The translations under genes were made by a program, and so were the position numbers. From Bacilli bacterium (GTDB taxonomy: Bacteria; Bacillota_I; Bacilli_A; RF39; UBA660), in assembly GCA_017542065.1 (NCBI GenBank), contig JAFXXX010000003.1:12049-76048 (forward strand): a stretch of DNA of 64,000 bases, in the 5' to 3' direction. The notes under the pieces are model-generated. The model saw only the letters and a list, made by a program, of their open reading frames with translations, was not told the origin of the DNA and ran no database searches. Below are positions 41,404-64,000 of this stretch, in pieces (position 1 is the first letter of the stretch; each line of letters begins with the position of its first letter).

Positions 41404-41412
41404 ACTAATCAC

Positions 41413-44400
41413 CTACTCTCCGTTATTTCCTTGTGATCCAGTATTACCTGTATCAGTACCAGTATTAGGATCAGTTGTTTCTACTGGATTAGCATCTTCA
41501 AATGTAATTGAATTAAAATCAACACCAGATGTCTTTTCACCCATTAATATAGGTTGTTGTGCAGCCACTATATTAGTATATGTTCCACCTGTATTAGTAT
41601 CCAAATCAAGTACTAATTTAAAGTATTGTCTATCTCCTGGTAATAATAATTTATCTTGAAGACCTGTATAATATAGAACTCCATCATAAATTGTCCAGTC
41701 TTTATTTTCTTCTAAACTTCCATCAAATGTCATACCTGCTGGAACTAAGTCAGCAATTATTCCAATATAACCTGGGAAGTATTTAGTATTAACTATATCA
41801 AAGCTATAAGTTACTCTAAATTTAGTATTCTTAATATTTCTAATATCTATATTAACCTTAGTAGCTTTTTCATATTCATATGTCTTAACACCTTGACTAG
41901 ATGTTTGAACAATATTAGTTATATATTTATTAATTTCTACAGCAAAGTCTTTTCTAATTCTTAATCCTAAGTTTATATAATTCTTATTTTCAGAACCATT
42001 TTGACTAGTTAAAGTAATAATATCAGAAACAGCTTCATTATCAACTTGATTCTTAGCTATAGACTTAGAATTAACTTGCTTACTAGCATCTCCACCAGCA
42101 TATTTATTACTTGGTGTATATTTATTACCATCATATCTAAATAATACATAATAGTTTCCTGTATTTAAACCACTAAATGTATATGAACCATTAGCATCTG
42201 TTGATGTAGTAGCTACTAATTCATCATTTTCAGAATTAATATATGCATTTGGATTTGATGCATCATCTGCATTATATTCTGCATTATTTAATTTATATAA
42301 TTCTACTACTATATCCTTCATTTGGTCTTCACCAACTTCATAGATATCACTATAGTTATAATCTTCAAATACAAATCCAGATATTTGTCTACTATAAACT
42401 TCTACAAGTGATTCTGATGAATAGAAGAATATTCTACTACTTAATGCATTTGGATCACATGGTGTTTCAGGATCTTCATCATATCTTCCATCACACTCAG
42501 GAGCAAATCCATTAGGTCTATCTACTGCTAAAGTAAATCCATTATAATATGCATCTGCCTGAGCATTCTTAACTGGTGTAACAATTACATTAACTCCGTT
42601 TTCAGAAACAAAGTATGTATCAATATCCCAGTTTTCATCTTTAACAATCTTAATAGCTGTAGCTTCAACTTCAGTAGTTGGATTAGTCCATTTAGTCCAG
42701 TTAGTTGAACTATCAGAATTAATTAAGTTATTAATATCACTAATTACATTAGTAGCAGTATCAGTTGTATAGTATGCTGTGTAACCAGTTAAATTATCAT
42801 TAATTTTTACTTTATAAGTAGCATTTGTAAATTTCTTATTGTATGACTTATAGTTATAGTCTTCAATATATGGAAGCATATAATATAATGTTGCATTTTC
42901 ATAAGCATATCCTGCATTACTTGCATCACTAGAATTATTATAAGCTTTCATAGTATAAGTATATGGTTCTGCTTTTTCAATATATCTTGGAGCAGCATTA
43001 CCAAATGTGCTTATATAAGAACTGTTATAAAGAGTTATAGTATCAGAAACAGTAGTCTTATATGGAATAGATGTTCTATTATCTAATACTCTATGAATAT
43101 CACTATTATCTACTATATATCCTTCCATATCAGCAGAAGCACTAATTTCAGTTTGTGTTCCTGACTTAGTATTCATGAATATATCTGTAAATATAGATAA
43201 TGTATTAACAGCACCATTAGTTATTTCATCTCTTTCAAAATCATATACATAAATTATATAATCAGGATCATCATCAATAACTCTTGATGGTGTTTTTTCC
43301 ATTCTCTTAGAACTATCACCATTATTTACTAATATTTCTGCATATAAGTAATTTAATGTTCTTGGAATTGTAACAGCAATTCCTGCATGATCATATTCAA
43401 TAGTATCTATATCAGAAGATGCACTAACTTGAATTCTCCATTCAATTGGATAATCATAGAATGAAGTTTTAGGATAGTTATTAAAGTATGATACTACTGA
43501 AGGATTATTAACTCTAAATCCCATAATATGAACAGTATCACCTGAAATATTACATAATGCTTCACCATTACATGGATTAGTATTATTAGAAAGTAATAAT
43601 CTATTTTCAAAACTGTATTTACTTTTTCCATAGTTATTAACGTTCTTAGCATTAGTAACATCACTAGTATTAATATTCTTTGATAAATAATATAAATCTA
43701 AATCATTAGTTGTAGGATTCTTAAAGTATCCTGTTGATAAAGTAGATATTTGATATGAATGATCAATTAAACCAATTTGATTCTTTCTAATTTTACCTGC
43801 TAAAGATACTTTAGCTGTTAATGAAGCATTAGCATTCATTTCATCAGATGATTTATCACCAAATATTGCTTTAACAATTATTATTGGAAGATCAGATGTA
43901 TCTTCGTCTTGTAAACTCCATACGAACGGACTATTTTCACCAGTCTTTTCAACTATACATGGTCCGCCATAAAGGTTCATTATGTTTTCTGTAGTTAATC
44001 CATCAAATGATGCAGGACAACCAGCAACACCAGTTAAATCAAAGTATTCTGAAGTCCACTCACCTTGACCATATTTTAAACTAGCCATTGGAGCACCAAT
44101 AATACCACTATCTTCTTTAGTAATTAAGAATGCAGTAGGATCAATTTTAATATAGTTATCTAATTCTGATAAATCATCACCTTTACCATCAGTAGCATAA
44201 GCAATAGTTTCTACTACTCTAAATCTTTGATTGTAATTTAAATAAGCATTACCAGAAATTAATGGAGTTGCATCTCCAGGATCCTTTGATACTTCACCAG
44301 CGTATATATCAACTTGTGAAACAAAGCTACCAACGAATTTTTCATAATAATCTGTAACAGTAACAGTTCCACCTTGAAGCTTATTATATTCTGTTCCAGG

Positions 44401-45540
44401 AACAACTAAATTAGTTGTAGCAACATTAAATGTTCTATCATTTCTATCTGTTGCAGATCTACCTGCTTTAAGTTCAAATGAAGCAGAACCAACATATGAA
44501 CTATTACCATCATATTTTAAACTGCTAACAGTTAATAAATTATTTTCAAATGTAATTGTATTACCAAGTGATGGTAATTGATTAATACCATCTACGAATA
44601 TATCATATTGTTTTGAAGGATCTTTATATGCTGCCATAGAATTTTCAACATATTGAAGATTTAATACACTAGCATCTTCAGAAGCCCAGTTAACATTAAA
44701 TGAAACACTAGATGGAACATAAATACCAACAGTCTTTTCAACTTTAACACCAATACCTATTGGATAAGTCTTTTGTCCAACATTATCAGTAGAAGGAGCT
44801 CCTTGATATACCTCAACATCATAATCATATGTACCTGTCATTGTAGTTAAACAGTTAGTAACAGTATTAGGGCAAGTAACATTTCCTGTAGGATTAGCAG
44901 CAAATGCTTCTTTTTCATCTGGATTTAATTCCTCAATTGATTTACTATCAGCATCAGTAGCTTCCTTCATAATAACAATTGGAGTAAAGCTAGCACCAAC
45001 AGTTTGTGTATTAACATTTTCTAAAGTGAAACTAAACTCTGATGGATTTAAAGTGCTTGATGTAGGAATATTATGCATTGCAAAATGGAAATAACTATAA
45101 TTTTCTCCTAAAGTCTTAGAAGTTACACTTCCATCAGCACCAGAAGATGTTAATGTAGCATTAATATTCTTTGGAATAATAACATCAACAACAACGCTTC
45201 TACCTTCTACTGGAGTAGTTAATGTTTCAGTTTTATGTTCTAAAACATATTCTACGTTATATGTAATACTATCAAAGTTTCTAAGTACTCCATTAGAAGC
45301 AGATGCATCTTTACCATGAGTATCTGTATCAGCATCAAGTTCTGCATGAGCATCTGCAATTGACTTAACAACTGCACTATTATCTTTAATTTTTAATTTG
45401 TTTTCATATTCATCATCTGTAGCAAATACTCCATATAGAATAAATGAAGTTGCTATAGTAAATGCAATTATGAAAGCAATTACTTTGTGTTTATAAATAA
45501 AATCAATGGTTTTCCAAAAACCTTTCTTAATTTTTTCCAT
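41413..45540 (-). CDS. Giant secreted/anchored surface protein (1375 aa) with C-terminal SdrD-B/Cna-B-like and DUF11-like domains
   Basis: N-terminal signal anchor. ISGFVFEDYN...TDANGSYTFSGLNTGNYYVLF (SdrD B-like), then a DUF11-like beta-sandwich. No C-terminal anchor. The stop abuts the next gene's RBS. Confidence 0.65.
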   Translation of the reverse strand: MEKIKKGFWKTIDFIYKHKVIAFIIAFTIATSFILYGVFATDDEYENKLKIKDNSAVVKSIADAHAELDADTDTHGKDASASNGVLRNFDSITYNVEYVLEHKTETLTTPVEGRSVVVDVIIPKNINATLTSSGADGSVTSKTLGENYSYFHFAMHNIPTSSTLNPSEFSFTLENVNTQTVGASFTPIVIMKEATDADSKSIEELNPDEKEAFAANPTGNVTCPNTVTNCLTTMTGTYDYDVEVYQGAPSTDNVGQKTYPIGIGVKVEKTVGIYVPSSVSFNVNWASEDASVLNLQYVENSMAAYKDPSKQYDIFVDGINQLPSLGNTITFENNLLTVSSLKYDGNSSYVGSASFELKAGRSATDRNDRTFNVATTNLVVPGTEYNKLQGGTVTVTDYYEKFVGSFVSQVDIYAGEVSKDPGDATPLISGNAYLNYNQRFRVVETIAYATDGKGDDLSELDNYIKIDPTAFLITKEDSGIIGAPMASLKYGQGEWTSEYFDLTGVAGCPASFDGLTTENIMNLYGGPCIVEKTGENSPFVWSLQDEDTSDLPIIIVKAIFGDKSSDEMNANASLTAKVSLAGKIRKNQIGLIDHSYQISTLSTGYFKNPTTNDLDLYYLSKNINTSDVTNAKNVNNYGKSKYSFENRLLLSNNTNPCNGEALCNISGDTVHIMGFRVNNPSVVSYFNNYPKTSFYDYPIEWRIQVSASSDIDTIEYDHAGIAVTIPRTLNYLYAEILVNNGDSSKRMEKTPSRVIDDDPDYIIYVYDFERDEITNGAVNTLSIFTDIFMNTKSGTQTEISASADMEGYIVDNSDIHRVLDNRTSIPYKTTVSDTITLYNSSYISTFGNAAPRYIEKAEPYTYTMKAYNNSSDASNAGYAYENATLYYMLPYIEDYNYKSYNKKFTNATYKVKINDNLTGYTAYYTTDTATNVISDINNLINSDSSTNWTKWTNPTTEVEATAIKIVKDENWDIDTYFVSENGVNVIVTPVKNAQADAYYNGFTLAVDRPNGFAPECDGRYDEDPETPCDPNALSSRIFFYSSESLVEVYSRQISGFVFEDYNYSDIYEVGEDQMKDIVVELYKLNNAEYNADDASNPNAYINSENDELVATTSTDANGSYTFSGLNTGNYYVLFRYDGNKYTPSNKYAGGDASKQVNSKSIAKNQVDNEAVSDIITLTSQNGSENKNYINLGLRIRKDFAVEINKYITNIVQTSSQGVKTYEYEKATKVNIDIRNIKNTKFRVTYSFDIVNTKYFPGYIGIIADLVPAGMTFDGSLEENKDWTIYDGVLYYTGLQDKLLLPGDRQYFKLVLDLDTNTGGTYTNIVAAQQPILMGEKTSGVDFNSITFEDANPVETTDPNTGTDTGNTGSQGNNGE

Positions 45541-50400: not shown

Positions 50401-50721
50401 TTAAACCTCCCTGATTAGTTCTTCTTCTTTTACTAAAACTCCTTTTGAATTTTCTTTATAAACCCTCTTACTATTCTTTTCTATTTTATTTACTATTTCT
50501 TTTTCTAAATCAATATTAAGCATTTTAGATATTCCAAGAAGATATATAATAACGTCTGCTAATTCTTCTCCTAAATCTTCTTTCTTCTTTAAATATGCAA
50601 TATATGCTTCACCAAGTTCTCCATAAGCTAAACAAAATTCCATTTCTATATTTGTTGTATTAAACCCATGATTTACTTTGTTTTGATATACTTTATCTTG
50701 TAATTCTTTTATGTTAACCAT
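50401..50721 (-). CDS. MazG-like nucleotide pyrophosphohydrolase
   Basis: EFCLAYGELGEAY...GEELADVIIYLLGISKMLNIDLE contains the EExxE/D-type MazG helix pair. Confidence 0.75.
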   Translation of the reverse strand: MVNIKELQDKVYQNKVNHGFNTTNIEMEFCLAYGELGEAYIAYLKKKEDLGEELADVIIYLLGISKMLNIDLEKEIVNKIEKNSKRVYKENSKGVLVKEEELIREV

Positions 50722-50730
50722 ATAAACCTC

Positions 50731-51144
50731 CTAAAGTAACTCTTTTAACTTATTAACTATTTCTATATCTGCACCTAACCATTCAACTGAATCTAATTCT
50801 TCTTTAGAAAGCCATTTCATTGATTCATGTTCTAACTTTTCTTCATCATGATAAACCATCTCTATATGATCATTTAATAATTCACAAAAATAAGTATGCA
50901 TTATCAAATGAAAATCAGGATTCTTATAATCATAATCTACAGTGCAAATATAATCTCCTACTTTAATATCAGCATTTAATTCCTCTTTTATTTCACGAAC
51001 TAATGCTTCTTCTTTTGTTTCACCAATTTCTGGTTTTCCACCTGGAAACTCCCACATACCTTTAAAATGTCCGTATCCTCTAGCAGTTCCAAGTATCTTA
51101 TTATCTTTCTTAATAACAGCTGCTACTACTTCTACTACTTTCAT
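50731..51144 (-). CDS. NUDIX hydrolase (MutT-like)
   Basis: NUDIX box GMWEFPGGKPEIGETKEEALVREIKEEL. Confidence 0.88.
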   Translation of the reverse strand: MKVVEVVAAVIKKDNKILGTARGYGHFKGMWEFPGGKPEIGETKEEALVREIKEELNADIKVGDYICTVDYDYKNPDFHLIMHTYFCELLNDHIEMVYHDEEKLEHESMKWLSKEELDSVEWLGADIEIVNKLKELL

Positions 51145-51728
51145 TATTTATTCCTACTTTCTTCAATATATTTTCTAATAATAAACTTAGATAGTATTAC
51201 ATCAGCATCAGCTAAATCATAATCAAGTAATTCTTCAATATTAACCCACTTATATTCTGAGTGAATTGGTGATGTAAATTCACCACTTACATAATCACAT
51301 TCATAGATTTTAAGATCTACTATATGACCTGGATATTCACATATACTATGAGTTAAATAATCATTAATATTAGCCTTAATTCCAAGAACTTCATCAAATG
51401 CTCTTTCTAGAGTTTTCTTTTCATCTTCAAGACCTTGTCTTCTTCCTCCTGGAAATTCCCATCTACCCTTTAGATGATCATCTTTATTTCTTCTAGCAAT
51501 TAAACATTTTCCATCCTTCATAATTAATGCACATACTACATCTAATATCTTTTTAGTATCAACTACATTAGTAACTGCAAATGGAAGTCCATTCTTCTTA
51601 ACTACTTGTTTTAAGAATAAATTAATTGCAGAACTCATTGATAAACCTAATTCTGTTAATACTAATGTTGCATCTTGTTTAACATCACTATCTACTTGAA
51701 TATTAATAGCACTTGTTTTATTAGCCAT
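51144..51728 (-). CDS. Fusion protein: RelB/DinJ-type antitoxin-like RHH N-domain + NUDIX hydrolase domain
   Basis: N-terminus INIQVDSDVKQDATLVLTELGLSMSSAINLFLKQVVKKNGLPF (DinJ pattern). C-terminus GRWEFPGGRRQGLEDEKKTLERAFDEVLG (NUDIX box). ATG at 51728 with GAGGTGAGG upstream. Confidence 0.7.
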   Translation of the reverse strand: MANKTSAINIQVDSDVKQDATLVLTELGLSMSSAINLFLKQVVKKNGLPFAVTNVVDTKKILDVVCALIMKDGKCLIARRNKDDHLKGRWEFPGGRRQGLEDEKKTLERAFDEVLGIKANINDYLTHSICEYPGHIVDLKIYECDYVSGEFTSPIHSEYKWVNIEELLDYDLADADVILSKFIIRKYIEESRNK

Positions 51729-51837
51729 TTTCCTCACCTCTTGAATAGATAATAACACCATAAAAAATGCTTGTCAATAGAAAACTACAAAAATACTACA
51801 ATTTTACTACATTACACTTTTATAATAAAAAAGAGAC

Positions 51838-53583: not shown

Positions 53584-53670
53584 CTATTATAATTATATCA
53601 TTAAATATCACTTGCATTATATAAAAATATGCTAAAAAAAGTGGTGAAATATTTGGCATGATAAACTAAT

Positions 53671-53705
53671 AAAAAAACGAACTATAATAGTTCGTTTTTT
53701 ATTTT
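53671..53705 (-). terminator. Strong terminator closing the DGR/effector operon (bidirectional shape)
   Basis: acgaactat-a-atagttcgt flanked by A7 and T6ATTTT. No plus-strand gene lies upstream, so it most likely serves the minus-strand operon. Confidence 0.7.
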
Positions 53706-53893
53706 CCAAATGGGGCGTTTATTTAGATACTTTTAAACTTTCCACCTTGTTTCACAAGTATAAAATTTTTCTATAAACATTATACTACAAAAATCTATAA
53801 ATTATCAACTTATATATTTCACCTTAGTATAGATTTTCCAACTTTATAATTATATATACAAAATATTAATATTTCATTTATCACATTTTATAT

Positions 53894-55408
53894 TTATCTA
53901 ATCTTCCTACTTGCATCTTCATCAACTTTACAATCATATAGTCTTTCAAGTTGCTTTGAAGTGATTTGAATTACAGTACCACAGCATGGTTTAAAATATC
54001 TATTACCATATACAAGCCAAATAACATTTTCATTTTTTAAATCATCTTTAGGCATAGTTCCAGGACAAGGTTCACCATCCGTAAAAACAATTTTATTTAT
54101 TTCTCTTTTCTTAGTAAAAGATCTAACAGCTAAATCCCAGTCTTCAGTCCAAGCAGAGTGTCCTCTTGCTCCGTTAGGTATTTCAAAATTGTCAATGTCC
54201 GACACATTTTTAATTTCTTTCATACCCCAAAACTTTTCATTAAAACATCCAACTTTTAATTTTGATTCTTTTAATATTGGTTTTATCATTCTTAAAAATG
54301 CTTTAACTAAATCCAGGTCAACAGAACCAGAAACATCTATCATAACTTCTGTTTCGGCTTCATCATCAATATCATTTTCTTCTAGTCTATAAGCATAATT
54401 ATTTTCAGCTATAGATCTTCTTTGTGACCATATTGTTTCAGTCTTTTCTACTTCTCTTCTTAATAAAATTCTCCAATCAAATTCTTCAGCACTTTCACCA
54501 ACTGAACCTAAATTAGTTTTATCAGAGAAACATGAATTAGTTAACATTTCATTTTTTAATCTTTCTAAGTTTTCTTTAGCTCTTGTTCTTCTTTCTTCAT
54601 AATTCTTTTCAAATTCTTCTTTTTCATCAAAATTATCAGACTCTAAATCATCGGTTGATAATTTATCATCACTTTGAGAACTATTAGATTTATCGCGGGA
54701 TTTATCTCCATTTTTTCTTTTTTCAAAAGCTTCTTCCCATAAACTATGATCATCACCAATTTGTTGAGCTTCACCATCATTCTTATCATTTGTTGATTTA
54801 TCATCTTGAGTGTTTGGACAATCTTGTTGATTTTCACCACCGTTATTGTTACTCTCTGTTTGATCTTGAGAATCTTGATTTTCACTATTTTGACTCTCAG
54901 TTTGTTCTTGTGAGTCTCCACTTTCTTTTTTATCTTGACTATCTTGTTCACTATTACTTTGATGTTCTTCCTGTTCTTTAGCCTTCTTTTCTTCTAAAAG
55001 CAATTGGTAAAACTCTTCCGCTGAATAATTCAAAGCCTCAGGTCTATTAACATATCCCTCTTTAATAATAAATCCGTCTCTTTCAAGATTAGCGTTTATT
55101 ATAGCATCGGTTGCTATATTCCATGTATCCATATCACGTTTTTCACCATTTTTATCTTCAAGTCTAAATGCATGAGCAAATTTAATATGCATTAATTCAT
55201 GTGCAATAAGAAATAATCTATCTGCCTCGCTTAAACCTGCTAAGTATTCTGGATCAAAGAAAATATTTTTTCCATCAGTTGCCGCAGTATGACATTTTAA
55301 ATCCGTTCTATAGGAAATATTTGCTGATGCTATCTCACTTGCAAATCTTGGATATCTTAACATCATTAATCGTTTAGTTTCGTAAAGTAATTTTGTCATT
55401 GCATCCAT
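53894..55408 (-). CDS. Putative Zn-metallopeptidase (HExxH, DUF2201_N-type) + acidic low-complexity linker + VWA-like domain; the usual partner of MoxR-class AAA+ ATPases
   Basis: HELMH at 55187-55201. The N-terminal pattern RYPRFA...TDGKNIFFDPEYL...FLIAHELMH is typical of DUF2201_N. MIDAS-like DVSGS in VMIDVSGSVD. ATG at 55408, 6 nt after AGGGGA, which overlaps the upstream stop. Confidence 0.8.
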   Translation of the reverse strand: MDAMTKLLYETKRLMMLRYPRFASEIASANISYRTDLKCHTAATDGKNIFFDPEYLAGLSEADRLFLIAHELMHIKFAHAFRLEDKNGEKRDMDTWNIATDAIINANLERDGFIIKEGYVNRPEALNYSAEEFYQLLLEEKKAKEQEEHQSNSEQDSQDKKESGDSQEQTESQNSENQDSQDQTESNNNGGENQQDCPNTQDDKSTNDKNDGEAQQIGDDHSLWEEAFEKRKNGDKSRDKSNSSQSDDKLSTDDLESDNFDEKEEFEKNYEERRTRAKENLERLKNEMLTNSCFSDKTNLGSVGESAEEFDWRILLRREVEKTETIWSQRRSIAENNYAYRLEENDIDDEAETEVMIDVSGSVDLDLVKAFLRMIKPILKESKLKVGCFNEKFWGMKEIKNVSDIDNFEIPNGARGHSAWTEDWDLAVRSFTKKREINKIVFTDGEPCPGTMPKDDLKNENVIWLVYGNRYFKPCCGTVIQITSKQLERLYDCKVDEDASRKIR

Positions 55409-55418
55409 AAACAATCCC

Positions 55419-55808
55419 CTAAATTGATACTACACAAAAATGATAAATTTCTGAAGAAATATTTTTTAATGATTCTTTATTTTCTATAGATAATACTATT
55501 ATTATATTATCTGGTAATGTATAACCAAGAAGTTCTCTATCTTTAATTATTGGAACATATTTATTTTGTTCATCAACTGATAAAGAATCAAAATTAGTAA
55601 CAACAAAATACCCTATTTCACCATTTTTTGAAACAATATCTACCTTTTCTTTAATTATTGGATTACCCATTTTAGCACCAAACAACCATGAATCATTTAT
55701 TCTTGAATCCATATGCACAGCATTTCCAAGTTTGTTTAAATCACTATTCTTTACCACAACGCAAGTAGCTTTACTACCTCTTTGTAATTCAATTAACTCT
55801 TTATTCAT
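55419..55808 (-). CDS. 129-aa protein resembling the Walker-B-to-sensor-1 half of an AAA_5 ATPase, without a P-loop (hypothetical)
   Basis: The start ATG overlaps the target-gene TGA (ATGA at 55805-55808). YFVVTNFDSLSVDEQNKYVPIIKDRELLGYTLPDNIIIVLSIEN parallels IVIMLDELLNVKPAVQSLVYTLVLNRLVETGKGLKLPANTVIVATGN of the upstream ATPase. Confidence 0.5.
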   Translation of the reverse strand: MNKELIELQRGSKATCVVVKNSDLNKLGNAVHMDSRINDSWLFGAKMGNPIIKEKVDIVSKNGEIGYFVVTNFDSLSVDEQNKYVPIIKDRELLGYTLPDNIIIVLSIENKESLKNISSEIYHFCVVSI

Positions 55809-57961
55809 AGTCTCTTACCTGCACTTTCTTCATTAATCATTGTCATTTCTTGAAGTTCTGTTATTCTCATTATTTTTCTTTCATCATTACCTGCCCAACA
55901 AATATCATATAATTGTAGATATTCTGGATCACAATATTTTCTAATAAAATCTCTACATTTTCCGACTTGATTTTCATCAGCAAGCAATAATGATGTTACA
56001 CAAGCAAATCTTTCATTAATATCTCTTGGTAAATCAGCTTGTGAAAACGAATCTGTAACAACTTCATCAACTGACATTGTAGGTATATTATAAAAATCAA
56101 AGAACTCTCTAGCCCATTCCTCGCGAAGTTTAGAATTGATAGATACCTCTAACATGTGCTCTACATCTTTTCCAATAAATTTACCTTTTCTTAAATCTTC
56201 TTCAAAAGCATAAAGAGTATTTGAAATTGATGTCCAACCACGAGGGTCATTAGTTCTTCCTTTACAACCATTTTGGTCTAATCTCTTTTCTCCCACTTCA
56301 GGTTCCTCATAAAAATAACCCATGTCAGAAATATGTTCACTTTTTCCACTTTGAATATATTTAGATAGTATATATCCAATTACTGATGGATGAATTTTAT
56401 TTGGAATTGCATATTCATTTATCCATTCACCAACTTTTGGTTGCATATCTAAAATGTGATCAAATCTTTTTTCAAGTGGCTCTGCTAAATCTTCAGCTAC
56501 GCTTGAATACTTCCTTTGGTTACCCGTTGCAACTATAACAGTATTAGCAGGAAGCTTTAATCCTTTTCCAGTTTCAACTAATCTATTTAAAACTAGAGTA
56601 TAGACTAATGATTGAACAGCTGGTTTAACGTTTAATAATTCATCTAGCATTATAACTATCTTTTCATTGCTGTTTTTAGATCTTTCATATATTTCGTCAG
56701 CTAAATCATAAAGGTTTTGGACATTCTCACTAATTAATCTTCTTTCCTCATTAGTTGCACAAGCAAGTAAAGCTTGCTTAGCAAAATCAGGTGGAATATT
56801 TTGCCCAGTTTGAAGATTCATGGAACCCACAACTTTTTCTGGAAACATATTATTCGTTAATTTTATATATATTAAATTTGGATATAAAGCTTTAATCCTT
56901 TCAGTTTTACCAATACCACTTGGTCCTCTAAGTAATACTGATTGTCCTGCTTCTATCCATGAATGAATAATCTCTGTATCAGTCATTCTTCGTCTATCTT
57001 GAGGACTAGTAGTATCAGGATTTAATCTTTGTAATCTTGATTTTCTTTCTTCTGATTCTTGATTCCATTCTGTGTCTGCTTGTACATAAGATGACAACTC
57101 GTCTTCATCTAACAACATACGAGGTGCAGTTGCTCTACATATTTCTTTTGAAAAATATCCGTCCATAAATTTCTTTATATCAGTTTTATCAAAGTCTCCA
57201 TCATACTCCGTATCATTTTGGAATTGAACTCCAGAAAAAAGGATCTTTTTTGATAGTGCTACATTTGCTTTTTCGTCTACTAACCATTTTATTGGTTCAA
57301 CAAAAATCCAATATGGTTTACCGTCTTCTATTACTCTACCATCAGATAGTGTTTCACCATTTCCATTAAAACCGGCAACAACTCGAATATATTTTTTACC
57401 TTTGTATGCAAACTCTTCATATTCTACTGGTTCAAAATTAGTATCATATTCATCATAGTTAACTGAATCTGTAGTATATACTTTTCCCGTTCTTACTAGA
57501 TCTATTTCAAATGGAACATCCTCGTTATAACACTCTTCTAATTTCTTTGAAAGGGTTTCATCAACGATTGTTTGCGGATATTCTCCATATTCAACTTCCT
57601 TAATATCAAACTTGCCTCTCACTTCGTTCGAGGCGATTAATTTGATTGATGAGTAAGGTAAAGCTGGACGAGCCCCATCAGGACGATCGTCGACATCGTC
57701 GCGGTAAGCACGACCATTGAAATCAACAACGCGCGCGCCTGAACTATATCCCGGATAAGAAGTTTTTGTCCACCACCATCCTGTTCTTTCCTTTTTATCT
57801 TCAGTTTCTTCTCCAACGTTAGTGTAAGTATCATTAGAATATGCATTCCCTAAAAGAATAGAAAAGTCCGTAACAGCACATTTAGTTCCATATTTTTTAA
57901 TTATATCTAATTGCTCATCTCCAAAGATTTGCTCATATGTTAATAAAGTCATATTATCCAT
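55805..57961 (-). CDS. DGR target protein: N-terminal VR-bearing lectin-like domain fused to a MoxR/AAA_5-type ATPase (718 aa, no signal peptide or TM)
   Basis: Contains the VR (aa 75-100). WWWTKTS...GARPAL lectin-like signature. Walker A GPSGIGKT (56903-56926), Walker B VIMLDEL, ATGN sensor-like segment. Confidence 0.85.
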   Translation of the reverse strand: MDNMTLLTYEQIFGDEQLDIIKKYGTKCAVTDFSILLGNAYSNDTYTNVGEETEDKKERTGWWWTKTSYPGYSSGARVVDFNGRAYRDDVDDRPDGARPALPYSSIKLIASNEVRGKFDIKEVEYGEYPQTIVDETLSKKLEECYNEDVPFEIDLVRTGKVYTTDSVNYDEYDTNFEPVEYEEFAYKGKKYIRVVAGFNGNGETLSDGRVIEDGKPYWIFVEPIKWLVDEKANVALSKKILFSGVQFQNDTEYDGDFDKTDIKKFMDGYFSKEICRATAPRMLLDEDELSSYVQADTEWNQESEERKSRLQRLNPDTTSPQDRRRMTDTEIIHSWIEAGQSVLLRGPSGIGKTERIKALYPNLIYIKLTNNMFPEKVVGSMNLQTGQNIPPDFAKQALLACATNEERRLISENVQNLYDLADEIYERSKNSNEKIVIMLDELLNVKPAVQSLVYTLVLNRLVETGKGLKLPANTVIVATGNQRKYSSVAEDLAEPLEKRFDHILDMQPKVGEWINEYAIPNKIHPSVIGYILSKYIQSGKSEHISDMGYFYEEPEVGEKRLDQNGCKGRTNDPRGWTSISNTLYAFEEDLRKGKFIGKDVEHMLEVSINSKLREEWAREFFDFYNIPTMSVDEVVTDSFSQADLPRDINERFACVTSLLLADENQVGKCRDFIRKYCDPEYLQLYDICWAGNDERKIMRITELQEMTMINEESAGKRL
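57664..57738 (-). repeat. DGR variable repeat (VR)
   Basis: 75 nt aligned without gaps to 59283-59357. 59/75 identical, and all 16 mismatches fall where the TR has A on the coding (minus) strand. Encodes ARVVDFNGRAYRDDVDDRPDGARP. Confidence 0.93.
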
Positions 57962-57994
57962 TTATAATCACCATATATATCATAACATAAATTC

Positions 57995-59059
57995 CTATTC
58001 TTTGACATATTTTTGGACAAATTTAAAGCTTTTATCATCTTCAAAGGGGAAAACCTCATCTTTTAATCTTTTACTTTCAGCAGTCCACTCTATATGATTA
58101 TAGAACGCATTTTTTCTTTGATAGACATATTCATCATCTACAAGTCCATTATTATATATTTTATATAAAGTCTTAAGATGTTTCTTCATTCGTTGTTTTG
58201 AAGAATGCCTTAATTTTACAATTATTTTACCATTACTATTTATAATATGCCTGTATCCCAAAAAATCAATACCATTTTTAGTCATCCCTATCTGAGTTTT
58301 ATCGTTTAATTCTAGGTCTAATATATTGTTACAATATTCTTCTATTTTTTTCTTACACAATGACAAATATTCTTTATCTTTATGTATTAAAATCATATCA
58401 TCCATATATCTCACATAATGTTTTATTTTTAATTGTTCCTTAATAAAATGATCAACTCCATTTAGGTATAAAAGTGCAAACCATTGACTTGTTTGGTTAC
58501 CTAAAGGAAGCCCTTTAGTTGCATTATCAGGTTGTTCTTTAATAAGTTTTTTCATAATCCACATTTCATCATCGGAAAAGTCAATCTTTTCTAGCATACT
58601 TATCAAAATATCATGGTTTATACTTGGAAAATATTTACAAATATCACACTTTAAGAAATATATATTATTATCTTTACTCTTCATATACTCATTTCTTAAA
58701 AATATATGTAATCGATTAATTGCAAAAGTAGTCCCTTTATTTTTTCTACATGCACAATTATCATATATTAACTTCACTTCAATCTTGTCTCTTAAAACAA
58801 TGTCACAAAAGCATCTAACCATTACCCTATCTTTAAAGGGTAGGGCTTCAATCAATCTCTCTTTTGGTTCGTAGATATAGAACTTTTTATACTTACCAAG
58901 TTTATAAGTTTTATTTATTAATTCCTTGCTTAAATTGCTTATATTAACGGAAAGATTTGATTCAAATCTTATAACCTCCCCTTTATGTTGCTTTGAATTT
59001 CTACAATGTTTATATGCACTATATAGATTTTCAAATGAAAATATTTCACTCAAATTCAT
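57995..59059 (-). CDS. DGR reverse transcriptase
   Basis: RT motifs including LPLGNQTSQ ((I/L)GxxxSQ, diagnostic for DGR RTs as I recall) and YMDD. ATG at 59059, 8 nt after GGAGG (the TTG at 59074 is rejected). Lies between the TR and the target gene. Confidence 0.92.
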   Translation of the reverse strand: MNLSEIFSFENLYSAYKHCRNSKQHKGEVIRFESNLSVNISNLSKELINKTYKLGKYKKFYIYEPKERLIEALPFKDRVMVRCFCDIVLRDKIEVKLIYDNCACRKNKGTTFAINRLHIFLRNEYMKSKDNNIYFLKCDICKYFPSINHDILISMLEKIDFSDDEMWIMKKLIKEQPDNATKGLPLGNQTSQWFALLYLNGVDHFIKEQLKIKHYVRYMDDMILIHKDKEYLSLCKKKIEEYCNNILDLELNDKTQIGMTKNGIDFLGYRHIINSNGKIIVKLRHSSKQRMKKHLKTLYKIYNNGLVDDEYVYQRKNAFYNHIEWTAESKRLKDEVFPFEDDKSFKFVQKYVKE

Positions 59060-59438
59060 AATATTTACCTCCAAATAAAATGAACACCCCTTATAACGCG
59101 CAAAGAGTTAAAACCCGTTGGTTGTGTGAGTGTTTTTTTATTTTTCTATCGCACTAAGATTTAATCTGTTAGCGATTGGAAAAGAAGAAAATTCCTTCAC
59201 CTTACAATACTGATATATTTTACTTAAAATATATTTCTCTGATCTGTTTTTTGAATTATAACTAATTCCTTCAAAAGTGAATCTGGACGAGCCCCATTAT
59301 TACGATTGTTGACATTGTTGTTGTTATCATTACCATTGTTATTAACAACGCGCGCGCGAGTCAAGAGAGTGGCTCTAAAAAACGCAACGACACAAAAACA
59401 AATTTTCTCCTTAATTAAAGGCCTTTCAACCTAAAATC
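59060..59438 (-). ncRNA. DGR RNA region (81-nt leader + 75-nt TR + 223-nt spacer up to the RT start)
   Basis: Non-coding interval between avd and RT that contains the TR. By analogy with the Bordetella phage BPP-1 DGR, TR plus the downstream spacer form the template-primer RNA. Transcript ends are not determinable here. Confidence 0.6.
59283..59357 (-). repeat. DGR template repeat (TR)
   Basis: Coding-strand sequence GCGCGCGCGTTGTTAATAACAATGGTAATGATAACAACAACAATGTCAACAATCGTAATAATGGGGCTCGTCCAG. In the VR frame it reads ARVVNNNGNDNNNNVNNRNNGARP, the AAY-rich design typical of TRs. Confidence 0.93.
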
Positions 59439-60023
59439 CTAATTTTTATTTTTCCATCTCTCATCATCACTTTTCTTCCAACTCGTGATTAGATTAATGG
59501 CTTCAGCAAGTTGCATTGAAATTTGTTTATATTGCCTTGTTAAAATACAACCTGATGATTCTGCAACCATAGAAACATAACCCAATAATTTCAGTTTAAC
59601 AATAGCTTCTCTTTGATAACTCTCTCTTTTTTCTTTATTTAAAGCAGAATCAATTCTAATAAAATTTGCCTTTAATAAATATTCTATCGTATCTAAGCAA
59701 TAATTCTGCATTCTATTAACAAAAACTCCTCGAAATTTCTTAGGAGATTTTTCGGTTATAGTAATTACATAAGCACATAATTTCTTCACTACGGTAATTA
59801 CAACTAGATCTTTTGCATTAAATGGGAGTTTATCTATTATTTTTATTTCATTATCTTCCACCTCAGCTTTTTCTTTTTCCCTTTTGGAATTAAATTTTCT
59901 ACCTTCAGCTATTGCAATTACTTTTTTTGTTTCAATAATATCTTCTACATTATTTGCGCTCTTAGTAGTTATTTCTATCTCTTTTGGGATTTTTAAATTA
60001 TTATTCCTACTTACTTGTAACAC
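59439..60023 (-). CDS. avd: Avd-like accessory variability determinant (four-helix-bundle type) with an N-terminal extension
   Basis: The C-terminal ~125 aa (LPFNAKDLVVITVVKKLCAYVITITEKSPKKFRGVFVNRMQNYCLDTIEYLLKANFI...LITSWKKS) fits the basic helical Avd pattern. Position is immediately upstream of the TR. GTG at 60023, 5 nt after GGAGGA, is preferred to the ATG at 60059. Confidence 0.7.
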   Translation of the reverse strand: MLQVSRNNNLKIPKEIEITTKSANNVEDIIETKKVIAIAEGRKFNSKREKEKAEVEDNEIKIIDKLPFNAKDLVVITVVKKLCAYVITITEKSPKKFRGVFVNRMQNYCLDTIEYLLKANFIRIDSALNKEKRESYQREAIVKLKLLGYVSMVAESSGCILTRQYKQISMQLAEAINLITSWKKSDDERWKNKN

Positions 60024-60076
60024 AGTATTCCTCCAATCCAAAACAAACACAAGATACAATTGCTTTATATAATATA

Positions 60077-61498
60077 TTATATACTATAATTGTCAGATTT
60101 TGTCTTATAGAATTCTTCTGCAGCTTCTTCCATTTCTTTATTAATAGAATTAATAGCTTTATTTATTTCAGATCTATTAATAATTTTAGGAGGATTAAAT
60201 ATAACACTATGTTCTTTATCTTTGATAAATCCTTTTTGATATAAATCGTCAGATAATTGTTTATAGAATCTAGAAGTAGTGTAGTCTTGACTATTAGCAT
60301 GTTTACAAAGATAAGTAACTAATTCTAAATGTTCTTTATCTTTTGTATGGATATATGTTTTTAATAATTCTTCTGAGCCTTCATAATTTTTTATTTTTCT
60401 TTCGTATCTTTGATTCATATCAGCTAGTTCATCATTTTTCTTAATTAACTCATTATTTCGTTTATTTAAATATTCTACATTACCTTTTACTTTATTAATA
60501 TTTTGATATATTTCTTTTAGTCTTAAAAATACTTCTTCCATTCTTTGAACTTCATCATTTAATTCAATAAATCTAACTATTTGCTTTTCTGTTAATTTAT
60601 AATTATTAAATTCATCTGGTTCAATTTCATAGAATATCTCATCTAATTCTTTAGATGTTTTATCAATTTTATCAACTAACTCATCTGATTCTTTAATACT
60701 TTTTTTATTTACTTCTAATTGATTCATTATTTCATTATAGTTTGCCATATCTTTAACGTGTATATTAAATGCTCGACCTTTTTGTTTTTCTTTTAATTCA
60801 GCTTTGTGTTCATCATTTAATCCATAAACCTCATTATAAGCATTAATACATTTTTCTCTCATATAGTCTTGTAATTTTTCAAGTTTTTCTTTTGTAAAGA
60901 CTGCAGACTTACCCACTTGAATATTCATTCCTCTAGTATTGTTATATTTAATTGGAACTCCTACAACATGCATATGAGGTGATCCTTCATCTAAGTGAAC
61001 AACTGCAGAGCATATTTTAAAATCTGGAGCTTTATGTTCTAAATCCTTTAATTGTTGATTAAATACATTGACCATTTTTTGTTTATAATCTAGATTCTTT
61101 GTATCCCAAAAATCTTTATTTCCAAGTTCAATTATAATTTCACAAGCTAAATCTTTTTGTTCATCATCTGATACATGTTTAAAATAATCATTAATCATTC
61201 TACTAGCTCTTGATTGTTTTGAGTTATATTCTATTCTAGATTCTTCAAACATATCTAGATATAATTCTTTAACATCCGATACAACATCATTAGTTCCTCT
61301 AAGTCCATAAATATATTCTGTATCTCCATCATATTTTCTAAAATCATGATTACTTACTTTTGATAATTGTTGAGAATTTTGAATAGCATTATTTGCAAAA
61401 GAGGTAGTGCCACTTAAATTATTTTTACTTTTTGCTTTTGCTTTTCTAGACTTATTTCCGTCATTACCAAGATGAAATGAATAGGCTAAAGTTTCCAT
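60077..61498 (-). CDS. mob: MobV-family (Mob_Pre) relaxase
   Basis: HLDEGSPHMHVVGVPI matches the HxDExxPHxH motif III of MobV relaxases. N-terminal HDFRKY (HxxR-like). Long coiled-coil C-terminus. Confidence 0.85.
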   Translation of the reverse strand: METLAYSFHLGNDGNKSRKAKAKSKNNLSGTTSFANNAIQNSQQLSKVSNHDFRKYDGDTEYIYGLRGTNDVVSDVKELYLDMFEESRIEYNSKQSRASRMINDYFKHVSDDEQKDLACEIIIELGNKDFWDTKNLDYKQKMVNVFNQQLKDLEHKAPDFKICSAVVHLDEGSPHMHVVGVPIKYNNTRGMNIQVGKSAVFTKEKLEKLQDYMREKCINAYNEVYGLNDEHKAELKEKQKGRAFNIHVKDMANYNEIMNQLEVNKKSIKESDELVDKIDKTSKELDEIFYEIEPDEFNNYKLTEKQIVRFIELNDEVQRMEEVFLRLKEIYQNINKVKGNVEYLNKRNNELIKKNDELADMNQRYERKIKNYEGSEELLKTYIHTKDKEHLELVTYLCKHANSQDYTTSRFYKQLSDDLYQKGFIKDKEHSVIFNPPKIINRSEINKAINSINKEMEEAAEEFYKTKSDNYSI

Positions 61499-61565
61499 AT
61501 ATTACCTCCTTTTAAAAGAATAGTATGAGCTCCCAGATTGGGATGCCAAACTATTTAACCCTCTA

Positions 61566-61595
61566 AGAAGATTGTACGCGAGCATACAATCTTCT
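61566..61595. other. Perfect 11-bp inverted repeat upstream of mob: candidate oriT (or recombinase terminator)
   Basis: agaagattgta-cgcgagca-tacaatcttct read directly. On the minus strand it is not followed by a T-run, which argues against a simple terminator. Confidence 0.4.
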
Positions 61596-61600
61596 GCGGG

Positions 61601-63511
<1,911 letters not shown>

Positions 63512-63543
63512 TCATCCCCTTTAAACCTTGTTCTAGCATTAAG

Positions 63544-63819
63544 TTAATTAATTGACTCATTGTTATATTTTTCTGTTTTATTATTTTTTCTAGATGATTT
63601 CTTTTCTTCTTGTTTAGACTTAACTTCATTGTATTCCTCCTTTTTATTTACATAATCACTTTCACATTTAAGGATTCTTTTATCACATTCGTTAATAATT
63701 ATCTTGTGTTCTTCTTCTGTTAATAAACTTTTTTCTTTATATAATCTGTCTATAATATTTTTTATATGTTTTAGATATAAAACCTCATTTATTGTTTCAT
63801 CTAATCTAATCTTATTCAT
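63544..63819 (-). CDS. Small K/E-rich hypothetical protein upstream of the recombinase
   Basis: ORF only. Possibly a recombination directionality or regulatory factor judging by position alone. Confidence 0.35.
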   Translation of the reverse strand: MNKIRLDETINEVLYLKHIKNIIDRLYKEKSLLTEEEHKIIINECDKRILKCESDYVNKKEEYNEVKSKQEEKKSSRKNNKTEKYNNESIN

Positions 63820-64000
63820 TTAATATTTCCTTTCGATTTACAAAAAAAGAGGAGACAGCAGTACCTAAAAGTCTATGTACTACTGACTCCTCTAAATAAT
63901 CGATATTATAAATAAATATTTTTTGTTTGTTTTTAATCATAGATGTACCTCCATTTCTAGAGTTACCTCTTTCATTGGTTATTTATAATATCACTTTTAT

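Follow-up and report, generated by a model that had tools for sequence, protein, structure and literature searches.

A diversity-generating retroelement on a mobilizable island diversifies the N-terminal, DUF6273-related module of an AAA_5/MoxR-family ATPase

The targets of diversity-generating retroelements (DGRs) are mostly seen as extracellular binders, such as phage tail fibres, pili and lipoproteins. The NTPase-linked intracellular targets described to date are, to our knowledge, chiefly those of multicellular cyanobacteria, purple sulfur bacteria and the candidate phyla radiation (CPR), and always have the variable domain at the C-terminus. Here we describe a DGR in a 64,000-nt stretch of a Bacilli genome of the RF39 lineage (UBA660; assembly GCA_017542065.1, contig JAFXXX010000003.1, positions 12,049 to 76,048), hereafter the window. 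Its variable repeat (VR) lies within the N-terminal module of a 718-aa protein that continues into an AAA_5/MoxR-family ATPase. A first-pass annotation of the same DNA had proposed this arrangement and taken it to be new. The arrangement stands, carried by the pairing of the VR with a template repeat (TR), the adenine mismatches between them and an AAA_5 match above the Pfam gathering score. The claim of novelty was overstated, since internal and N-terminal VRs, targets of P-loop and AAA (midasin) type and DGR-linked MoxR-vWA systems have all been published (PMC5758913, PMC7159879, PMC10907252); it is narrowed further in that ~2,900 protein clusters contain the module, the majority lacking the ATPase.

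Among the described systems with which the locus can be compared are the DGR-associated MoxR-vWA (VMAP) ternary conflict systems of cyanobacteria and gammaproteobacteria. There a DGR diversifies an FGS domain at the C-terminal end of the vWA protein (Kaur et al. 2020, PMC7159879; Dore et al. 2024, PMC10907252), and the role proposed for the system is that of a hypervariable sensor, or effector, acting in biological conflicts. In both cases a DGR with a reverse transcriptase (RT), a TR and Avd (in the window a putative one) diversifies a lectin-type module of predicted cytoplasmic location, which works, in the window as predicted from the genes, with a MoxR-type AAA+ ATPase, a vWA protein and a peptidase. 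The distribution of these parts over polypeptides differs. In the VMAP systems the variable FGS or CLec domain is C-terminal in the vWA protein or in a separate target, MoxR is separate and unvaried, and the third part is the VMAP component with a trypsin or caspase domain. In the window the variable module stands at the N-terminus of the ATPase and is a permuted DUF6273 instead of an FGE-sulfatase domain, the vWA protein bears a zincin-like peptidase (DUF2201_N), and no VMAP-like gene is evident, the third gene encoding a 129-aa protein. The hosts differ as well, being unicellular gut and rumen Firmicutes, and the system is carried by a mobilizable island.

The union of a binding domain and an NTPase on one predicted cytoplasmic polypeptide likewise has precedents among STAND, P-loop NTPase and 'midasin-like' AAA targets of DGRs (b7-b11, g1 and UVR4 of Wu et al. 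2018, PMC5758913; Dore et al. 2024). In these proteins the NTPase lies upstream of a VR at the extreme C-terminus (PMC5758913), and it is of STAND type (NACHT, nSTAND), AAA_16 or an unclassified CPR protein. The window target reverses the order, its VR lying at codons 75-102 out of 718, and its ATPase is of the MoxR lineage that has DUF2201 proteins as partners (AAA_5).

The module itself has its likeness in DUF6273, the 'Ig1-class' VR domain of phage receptor-binding proteins, including tentaclins and the DGR targets of Faecalibacterium phage FP_Toutatis (PMC10743442; bioRxiv 10.1101/2024.10.15.618418). The common traits are the domain superfamily, the VR scaffold (WW..., a variable hairpin and G-x-RPAL) and related DGRs of gut Firmicutes. 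DUF6273 has been described as C-type-lectin-like from AlphaFold3 models, and its VRs are classed as Ig1 by myDGR (both bioRxiv 10.1101/2024.10.15.618418). The phage proteins keep the canonical order, in which the VR forms the C-terminal end of the domain, and act outside the cell as virion or tail components, whereas the window module is circularly permuted, holds a 110-aa insert, has no secretion signal and is fused to an ATPase. An internal or N-terminal VR has been reported for 9 of 34 Ig1 and 9 of 10 Ig2 targets, and an N-terminal VR for three DGRs (PMC5758913); in 17 Ig1/Ig2 targets over 250 uncharacterised residues come after an N-terminal VR (Roux et al. preprint, 10.1101/2020.04.01.020958). 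It is very probable that earlier lists contain members of the present family as unannotated 'Ig-class, internal VR' targets; the conserved family peptides found no match in the searched portion of the supplements of Roux et al. 2021.

Finally, plasmids and phages (for example Sphaerotilus plasmid pSna507_unt13 and N4-like phages) carry pairs of a 'MoxR family ATPase' and a 'VWA-like domain-containing protein' that are homologous to the ATPase and partner genes of the window and stand in the same order, but their ATPase, of ~400 aa, comes without the N-terminal binding module, the DGR or the small intervening gene. DUF2201 is mentioned in few publications, none of them functional. In open-access text we found neither a direct AAA_5/MoxR fusion as a DGR target nor any statement of the MoxR-family C-terminal region, of the zincin/VWA partner or of the module as a DUF6273 permutant. 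We regard the ATPase fusion as an apparently undescribed, widespread variant of the DGR-diversified intracellular recognition systems coupled to NTPases, whose components and logic have clear precedents.

Diversification of the target

The core of the VR (57724-57663) differs from the TR at 17 positions, every one of which is an adenine in the TR and falls on codon position 1 or 2. Only two further mismatches involve other bases; both lie 3' of the identical GGGGCTCGTCCAG block, which is the pattern expected for a pair of IMH and IMH* sites (initiation of mutagenic homing). The TR, ARVVNNNGNDNNNNVNNRNNGARP, supplies 12 AAY codons and one GAT, and the variable positions derived from these lie within codons 80-95 of the target. 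The figure of 12 variable residues given in the first-pass annotation is thus right for the asparagine (AAY) codons, while in the window copy 13 codons, codon 100 included, differ between the two repeats. The RT encoded next to the repeat matches the RVT_1, group-II-like RT and PADLOC RT models. No significant DNA hairpin was detected downstream of the VR (z=-0.25).

Closely related copies of the locus show that the DGR is active, as genes that are 98-99.7% identical differ chiefly at VR positions corresponding to adenines of the TR. Between the window gene and its counterpart on contig L006, only 7 of 2157 nt differ, yet five of these fall within the 84-nt VR, all five at TR-adenine positions, with the TR itself unchanged (Fisher p=1.6e-6). 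The copy on contig L042 differs at 34 nt, 21 of them in the VR and 20 at TR adenines (p=1e-22). Across 37 full-length homologues of 61-99% identity, column entropy reaches 2.94 bits at the codons with TR adenines as compared with 0.62 bits at the interleaved scaffold positions of the VR (V79, G83, R93, G96, R98 and P99), 1.34 bits in the remaining N-terminal region and 0.54 bits in the ATPase. Conserved scaffold columns hence alternate with hypervariable ones, and in the AlphaFold2 model the VR occupies a hairpin and loop. Such a DGR could supply the population with a repertoire of up to ~15^12 x 4 variants.

The position of the VR near the start of the target is not an artefact of gene calling. 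We considered and rejected the possibility that its start had been called wrongly or that the open reading frame (ORF) extends further upstream: the first in-frame start after the preceding stop is 57961, 34 nt past the RT stop codon, and the same motif begins all 37 homologues.

The N-terminal module and the ATPase

The module can be divided into three parts (Table 1), which follow one another in an order that departs from the canonical one: the former C-terminal half comes first (LLTxEQ, WWW, the VR and GxRPAL), the insert second, and the former N-terminal strands and helix last. In the window protein the relation to Pfam DUF6273 (PF19789) is faint, with residues 21-101 matching profile positions 102-168 of 172 (E=1.3e-3 and 19 bits, with 15-19 bits over the scans, under the gathering score of 23.5). 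Relatives with the same module exceed that score, P0145 with 31.4 bits and P0141 with 26.3 bits. The resemblance to DUF6273 that had been proposed in the first-pass annotation is therefore real at the level of the family and weak, below threshold, in the window protein.

Proteins with tandem copies of the module are informative about its order. P0141 contains modules at residues 7-257 and 279-544, and the DUF6273 model spans residues 214-375 of this protein, that is, profile positions 5-170 of 172 (E=7.8e-6). In P0148 the model covers residues 500-626, over the junction of modules 2 and 3. Because DUF6273 is matched from end to end only across such junctions, interpretation of the module as a circular permutant of this domain with an insert of ~110 aa is supported, in agreement with the permuted or split arrangement suggested at first pass. 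Gp24 of phage FP_Toutatis, a canonical DUF6273 protein, aligns weakly to the module, in permuted order. Circular permutation accounts for the VR lying in the N-terminal part of the target, and makes an internal VR a property of the whole module family and not of the window protein alone.

AlphaFold2, given residues 1-285 and an alignment of 21 sequences, returned a compact, mainly beta structure with a terminal helix at 261-273 (mean predicted local distance difference test, pLDDT, 91.2; predicted template modelling score, pTM, 0.90), and the N-terminal part was again confident in the model of the full-length protein. Residues 1-275 are thus confidently predicted to form one unit. We further predict that the module is lectin-like, a label that rests on the link to DUF6273 because Foldseek retrieved no solved lectin structure. 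Comparison of the module model with BFVD gave weak partial matches to predicted phage DUF6273 proteins. Rearranging the window protein artificially (residues 205-280 + 1-110, or 111-280 + 1-110) did not lengthen the DUF6273 match in a Pfam scan, and sequence searches of the PDB with a profile of the module, with the ATPase region and with a profile of the full protein found nothing.

The ATPase is assigned by Pfam AAA_5 over residues 342-500 (E=1.2e-6, 29 bits against a gathering score of 22), with Pfam AAA also passing its threshold (22.6 bits against 21.2). The AAA+ core had been recognised at first pass from GPSGIGKT, VIMLDEL and ATGN, and all of these are indeed present: GPSGIGKT at 346-353, D440-E441, ATGN at 478-481 with the sensor 1 residue N481, and the arginine finger R499 are invariant or nearly so in the 37 homologues. 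The label 'MoxR-type' fares less uniformly. It is upheld by homology to the plasmid 'MoxR family ATPase' (pairwise E=3e-12 over residues 342-658, with a PRxW motif common to both), but the Pfam match is to AAA_5 and not to AAA_3, the family named for MoxR proper, which does not match the window protein and reaches only E=0.05-0.06 in two homologues. AAA_16 remains below its gathering score (E=0.002), and Pfam finds no NACHT, NB-ARC or nSTAND domain in the target. Neither phmmer nor a profile search gave a PDB sequence match for the ATPase, and Foldseek with the full-length model produced generic AAA+ matches in the PDB at E>=0.013. Between Walker A and Walker B lies a nearly invariant stretch of 23 aa, TNNMFPEKVVGSMNLQTGQNIPP (residues 369-391; window 56890-56855), which is modelled with a pLDDT <50 and may represent either a pore loop or a helix-2 insert.

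The target is predicted to be a soluble, cytoplasmic protein. This is supported by the lack of any hydrophobic segment, in accordance with the earlier statement that the protein has no signal peptide, lipobox or transmembrane segment: the N-terminus is not hydrophobic, and the largest Kyte-Doolittle mean over 19 residues, 1.28, falls on the Walker B strand. Fusion of the module elsewhere to ankyrin and pentapeptide repeats lends further support. The hydropathy test found no hydrophobic segment in the 129-aa and 506-aa proteins either.

Operon, carrier island and distribution

Read along the minus strand, the locus consists of a large serine recombinase, a MobV relaxase, a bAvd-like gene, the TR, the RT, the 718-aa target, the 129-aa protein and the 506-aa DUF2201_N protein (Table 1); the three genes plus the DGR make up a unit of ~6.5 kb. 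The Avd-like protein occupies the canonical position upstream of the TR, and its matches to bAvd (E=2.6e-5) and NCBIfam DivGenRetAVD (E=1.3e-7) are both under the curated cut-offs. Its N-terminal extension has a weak match to a zinc ribbon (CdsZ, E=3.7e-4); the public gene call for an identical locus is 194 aa long, so that the true start is uncertain.

Table 1. Features of the DGR locus and its target, in window positions
Feature	Position	Strand	Basis
DGR target gene, 718 aa: N-terminal hypervariable module + AAA_5/MoxR-family ATPase	55805..57961	minus	ORF; Pfam AAA_5 above gathering score; homologous clusters
VR, codons 75-102, IMH-like GGGGCTCGTCCAG block at 3' end	57655..57738	minus	77% identity to TR
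TR, AAY-rich, 84 nt, between Avd and RT genes	59274..59357	minus	28 adenines, 17 changed in VR
Module residues 1-103, matching C-terminal half of DUF6273 (LLTYEQ.., WWW, VR, GARPAL)	57653..57961	minus	Pfam DUF6273 profile match
Module residues 104-215, beta-rich insert (EYGEYPQ...YTTDS...KYIRV), outside Pfam DUF6273 model	57317..57652	minus	AlphaFold2 pLDDT 80-96; conserved columns
Module residues 216-275, matching N-terminal part of DUF6273 (EPIKWLVDEK..LSKKILF..DIKKFMDGYF)	57137..57316	minus	Pfam matches over tandem junctions
AAA+ ATPase + C-terminal helical domain, residues ~330-718	55808..56974	minus	AAA_5 over residues 342-500; motifs
Walker A GPSGIGKT, residues 346-353	56903-56926	minus	motif
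Walker B VIMLDEL, residues 436-442	56636-56656	minus	motif
DGR reverse transcriptase, 359 aa	57995..59074	minus	RVT_1 E=1.4e-18; PADLOC RT 3.5e-35; group-II-like RT 2.4e-28
Avd-like accessory protein, four-helix domain at residues 86-197, ~80-aa N-terminal extension	59439..60059	minus	bAvd and DivGenRetAVD matches
129-aa protein, start codon overlapping ATPase-gene stop codon	55419..55808	minus	homologue adjoins ATPase in most of 79 loci
Partner, 506 aa: DUF2201_N zincin-like metallopeptidase + acidic linker + VWA-like domain	53894..55414	minus	DUF2201_N E=9.2e-24
MobV/Mob_Pre relaxase	60077-61498	minus	library scans; block 99% identical in L001, L006, L042
Large serine recombinase	61601-63511	minus	library scans; block 99% identical in L001, L006, L042

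The overlapping stop and start codons lead us to predict that the ATPase gene is co-transcribed with that of the 129-aa protein, for which scans of Pfam, PADLOC and NCBIfam gave no family match. Two genes downstream of the ATPase, in a pairing kept across loci, stands the partner gene. Its product shows HELMH at residue 72, DVSGS at residue 360, which resembles a metal ion-dependent adhesion site (MIDAS), and TDG. The peptidase domain is 37% identical to the plasmid 'VWA-like domain-containing protein' (E=2e-22), and the C-terminal region matches the full profile of PF09967, the VWA-like DUF2201 model, weakly (E=0.023; 0.006-0.09 in orthologues). The linker between them (residues ~145-330; window 54400-54990) is acidic, rich in Ser, Gln and Asn and of low complexity, and orthologous proteins range from 446 to 557 aa as its length varies. 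In the NCBIfam and PADLOC scans none of the three proteins, target, small protein or partner, was assigned to a named family or a known defence system.

The block containing these genes is 99-99.9% identical at the nucleotide level in three public contigs, L001, L006 and L042, the last being a 1.04-Mb contig of a Bacilli metagenome-assembled genome (MAG) from buffalo omasum. Homology with L042 stops at window position ~53669, just beyond the DUF2201 gene, marking one end of an island; the other end is beyond the window, as the island segment (53669-64000) runs off its edge. A mobilizable island of at least 10 kb thus carries a complete, active DGR with an Avd-like gene, TR and RT, and the DGR/ATPase operon is essentially the sole cargo of this small integrative mobilizable element with its serine recombinase and MobV relaxase.

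Some further features of the window deserve a record. The relaxase gene contains a tandem imperfect direct repeat of 42 nt (74% identity, 60621-60704) in the part encoding its coiled-coil C-terminus. The G+C content is 0.33 over window positions 56001-58000, which contain the target gene, compared with 0.25-0.30 elsewhere, partly owing to the GC-rich VR/IMH segment. At 50401-51761 lie a RelB-antitoxin/NUDIX fusion (51144-51761), a NUDIX-like ORF (50731-51144) and a small ORF that looks MazG-like (50401-50721); of the three, the fusion was covered by the family scan. Two very large ORFs at 38752-45540 (886 and 1375 aa), with SpaA/prealbumin-like and SdrD B-like domains, probably encode Gram-positive surface adhesin or pilus proteins.

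The target is far from unique to this island. More than 1,336 clusters at 90% identity are homologous to it over the full length, and the top 120 are full-length at 60-99% identity. In bacterial contigs representing one genome per species, 74 target loci were found, all from gut or rumen MAGs of Clostridia, Bacilli (some in bins labelled 'Tenericutes') and Christensenella. The RT and Avd immediately precede the target in ~35 loci, and almost all loci have the small protein and the DUF2201 partner on the downstream side. In at least 18 independent loci the VR has its own TR ~1.6 kb upstream, with mismatches confined exclusively or almost exclusively to adenines. Some of the loci without an RT stand beside insertion sequences (IS) and topoisomerase III.

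Two loci contain tandem duplications in the order target - 158 aa - 121 aa - target - DUF2201 (L013:4808-13791 and L081:6907-13591). In the former a single TR matches the VRs of both ATPase paralogues, which are 91% identical, with adenine-only mismatches; in the latter the paralogues lie among housekeeping genes and no RT is present. Tandem targets make mixed-specificity rings or two parallel receptors possible. A different variant, at L076:8762-12940, encodes an 830-aa homologue with the same ATPase, a longer and divergent module and GILPMMNL in place of GARPALPY; both a nearby RT and the small intervening gene are absent, and it is probably a non-diversified relative.

Beyond the ATPase the module forms a much larger family. 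A profile search of 1.84 billion representative proteins returned 2,925 clusters (50% identity) at E<=1e-3, 991 of them at E<=1e-30. All of the best 150 matches contain the whole ~270-aa module, mostly from residue 1, and 16 of the 150 have the ATPase region; the others among these include stand-alone proteins of ~270-350 aa and tandem arrays of two or three copies. Dismissal of the ~300-aa stand-alone modules as mere gene fragments was rejected in general, as at least P0151 is an intact ORF flanked by other genes. The module is also found fused to ankyrin, DUF4116, pentapeptide or TelA domains, P0139-P0148 being examples of such tandem and fused forms, and the family looks like a large, uncurated set of cytoplasmic DGR-type scaffolds. 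The module and the ATPase are linked independently of the fusion found in the window. At L140:4269-9018 a stand-alone AAA_5 gene (579 aa) overlaps, stop to start, a gene with three modules and ankyrin repeats, with no RT within 6 kb, and the split arrangement provides an independent genomic link between the two. These adjacent genes, together with the module-ATPase-module proteins P0238 (895 aa) and P0254 (929 aa), argue for a functional connection of module and ATPase.

A phage origin of the target family was rejected. Whole-protein tblastn found only distant, AAA-only relatives in plasmids and phages, and the same held for IMG/VR: annotated phages, plasmids and the 2.9 million viral contigs of IMG/VR contain no close relative of the target. 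Search of 50,697 phage records with the N-terminal 110 aa alone (tblastn) gave one insignificant match.

Possible function and competing explanations

What could a hypermutating module joined to an AAA+ motor do inside the cell? The overall best explanation, to which we give somewhat more credence than to all others together, is that the module is a hypervariable intracellular target receptor directing AAA+ remodelling and proteolysis in genetic conflict. The ATPase would probably form a ring displaying several hypervariable modules as the target receptor. The ligand captured by their variable surface would lie in the cytoplasm and most likely be a protein from an invading phage or a rival mobile element; ATP hydrolysis and the VWA/MIDAS adaptor might then remodel this ligand, deliver it to the zinc peptidase or switch the latter on. 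With the repertoire generated beforehand in the bacterial population by the DGR, recognition inside the cell would be anticipatory, much as in the STAND and MoxR-vWA conflict systems whose sensors are DGR-diversified. We infer this sequence of events from the behaviour of MoxR-VWA pairs, from published proposals for DGR-diversified sensors in MoxR-vWA and STAND systems (PMC7159879, PMC10907252) and from the carriage of the system on a mobilizable island. A bolder form of the idea, which we advance only tentatively and consider less likely than not, is that the AAA+ motor has a substrate receptor continually reprogrammed by the DGR and delivers arbitrary cytoplasmic phage or plasmid proteins to its zincin/VWA partner. 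It would then represent an undescribed class of population-level 'anticipatory' recognition, enabled by permutation of the scaffold and spread by islands.

A number of observations weigh against a conflict receptor of this kind. Its ring, its pore loops and its peptidase activity are assumed. AlphaFold2 confidence for the AAA region is moderate (mean pLDDT 70, range ~45-75), the VWA assignment of the partner is below the Pfam gathering score, and the module model found no match in the PDB with Foldseek, whether to a C-type lectin or to any other solved structure (best E=0.1, TM-score <0.15). No PADLOC system is matched at the locus, where the sole match is a partial one to DolB/AAA, and a census of 134 flanking ORFs is heterogeneous (housekeeping genes, integrases, GNATs), with few matches to defence models and no clear defence-island signal. 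Roughly half of the loci lack an RT within 10 kb, and the module at L076 is of an apparently non-diversified form; together these indicate that the core function does not strictly need hypermutation.

The recurrent association with mobile elements also suggests an explanation in which the direction of recognition is reversed. As a device for counter-defence or establishment, the module would recognise variable proteins of the recipient host, involved in restriction, abortive infection or surface exclusion, and the AAA+ and zincin/VWA proteins would neutralise them. In the window the system is nearly the only cargo of a small serine-recombinase/MobV island, and integrases and recombinases recur among the neighbours of its homologues, some of which adjoin topoisomerase III and IS elements, a neighbourhood typical of conjugative elements. 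Related ATPase/DUF2201 pairs are moreover common on plasmids and on N4-like and other lytic phages. Many copies, however, stand among housekeeping genes without mobility genes nearby, as at L081, and the sequence evidence fits binding of an invader and binding of a host protein alike; we consider such a device unlikely, though it is the strongest of the alternatives.

Pairs of MoxR and VWA proteins (CbbQO, NorQD, RavA-ViaA) are adaptor-guided remodellers and classically act as maturation factors. It is accordingly conceivable that the present system is a chaperone without a role in conflict, which like CbbQ/CbbO or NorQ/NorD matures or remodels a cellular complex, while the module binds a carbohydrate or other small ligand with an affinity tuned by the DGR. 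The existence of a version without a DGR (L076) and of chromosomal copies among housekeeping genes would suit this role, but a repertoire of ~10^14 variants, its turnover between 99%-identical copies, differently diversified paralogues and carriage on an island better fit an arms race than a fixed substrate, and no conserved client operon is found among the 134 flanking ORFs, which makes the chaperone improbable.

It is just as doubtful that the module is a new beta-rich fold sharing only the short VR-scaffold motif (WW...RPAL) with DUF6273, which would make 'permuted lectin' an over-interpretation: the missing structure and sequence matches in the PDB, the sub-gathering match of the window protein over 67 profile positions and the artificial permutants that failed to extend it speak for such a fold, but in P0141 nearly the whole DUF6273 profile is matched over the junction with more bits than the gathering score demands, a junction is spanned again in P0148, and several DUF6273 proteins in BFVD are the best structural neighbours. 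Foldseek aligns structures sequentially, so that no more than half of the domain can be matched in a permutant.

The family differs in several useful ways from the DGR targets described before. It extends the logic of the hypermutated intracellular sensor to abundant Firmicutes of the gut and rumen, and indicates that a variable scaffold can be circularly permuted and set at the N-terminus of a motor protein, and that a MoxR-type ATPase with a peptidase/VWA partner can bear the sensor as a direct fusion. Being compact, mobile and demonstrably active, the unit is a tractable subject for finding the ligands of DGR-diversified sensors and the role of the MoxR/DUF2201 pair. If the model of receptor, motor and peptidase is true, the scaffold would be of interest for programmable intracellular targeting; if the receptor is, in addition, continually reprogrammed by the DGR, it would in effect act in these bacteria as the targeting subunit, itself hypermutating, of an ATP-dependent remodeller or protease.

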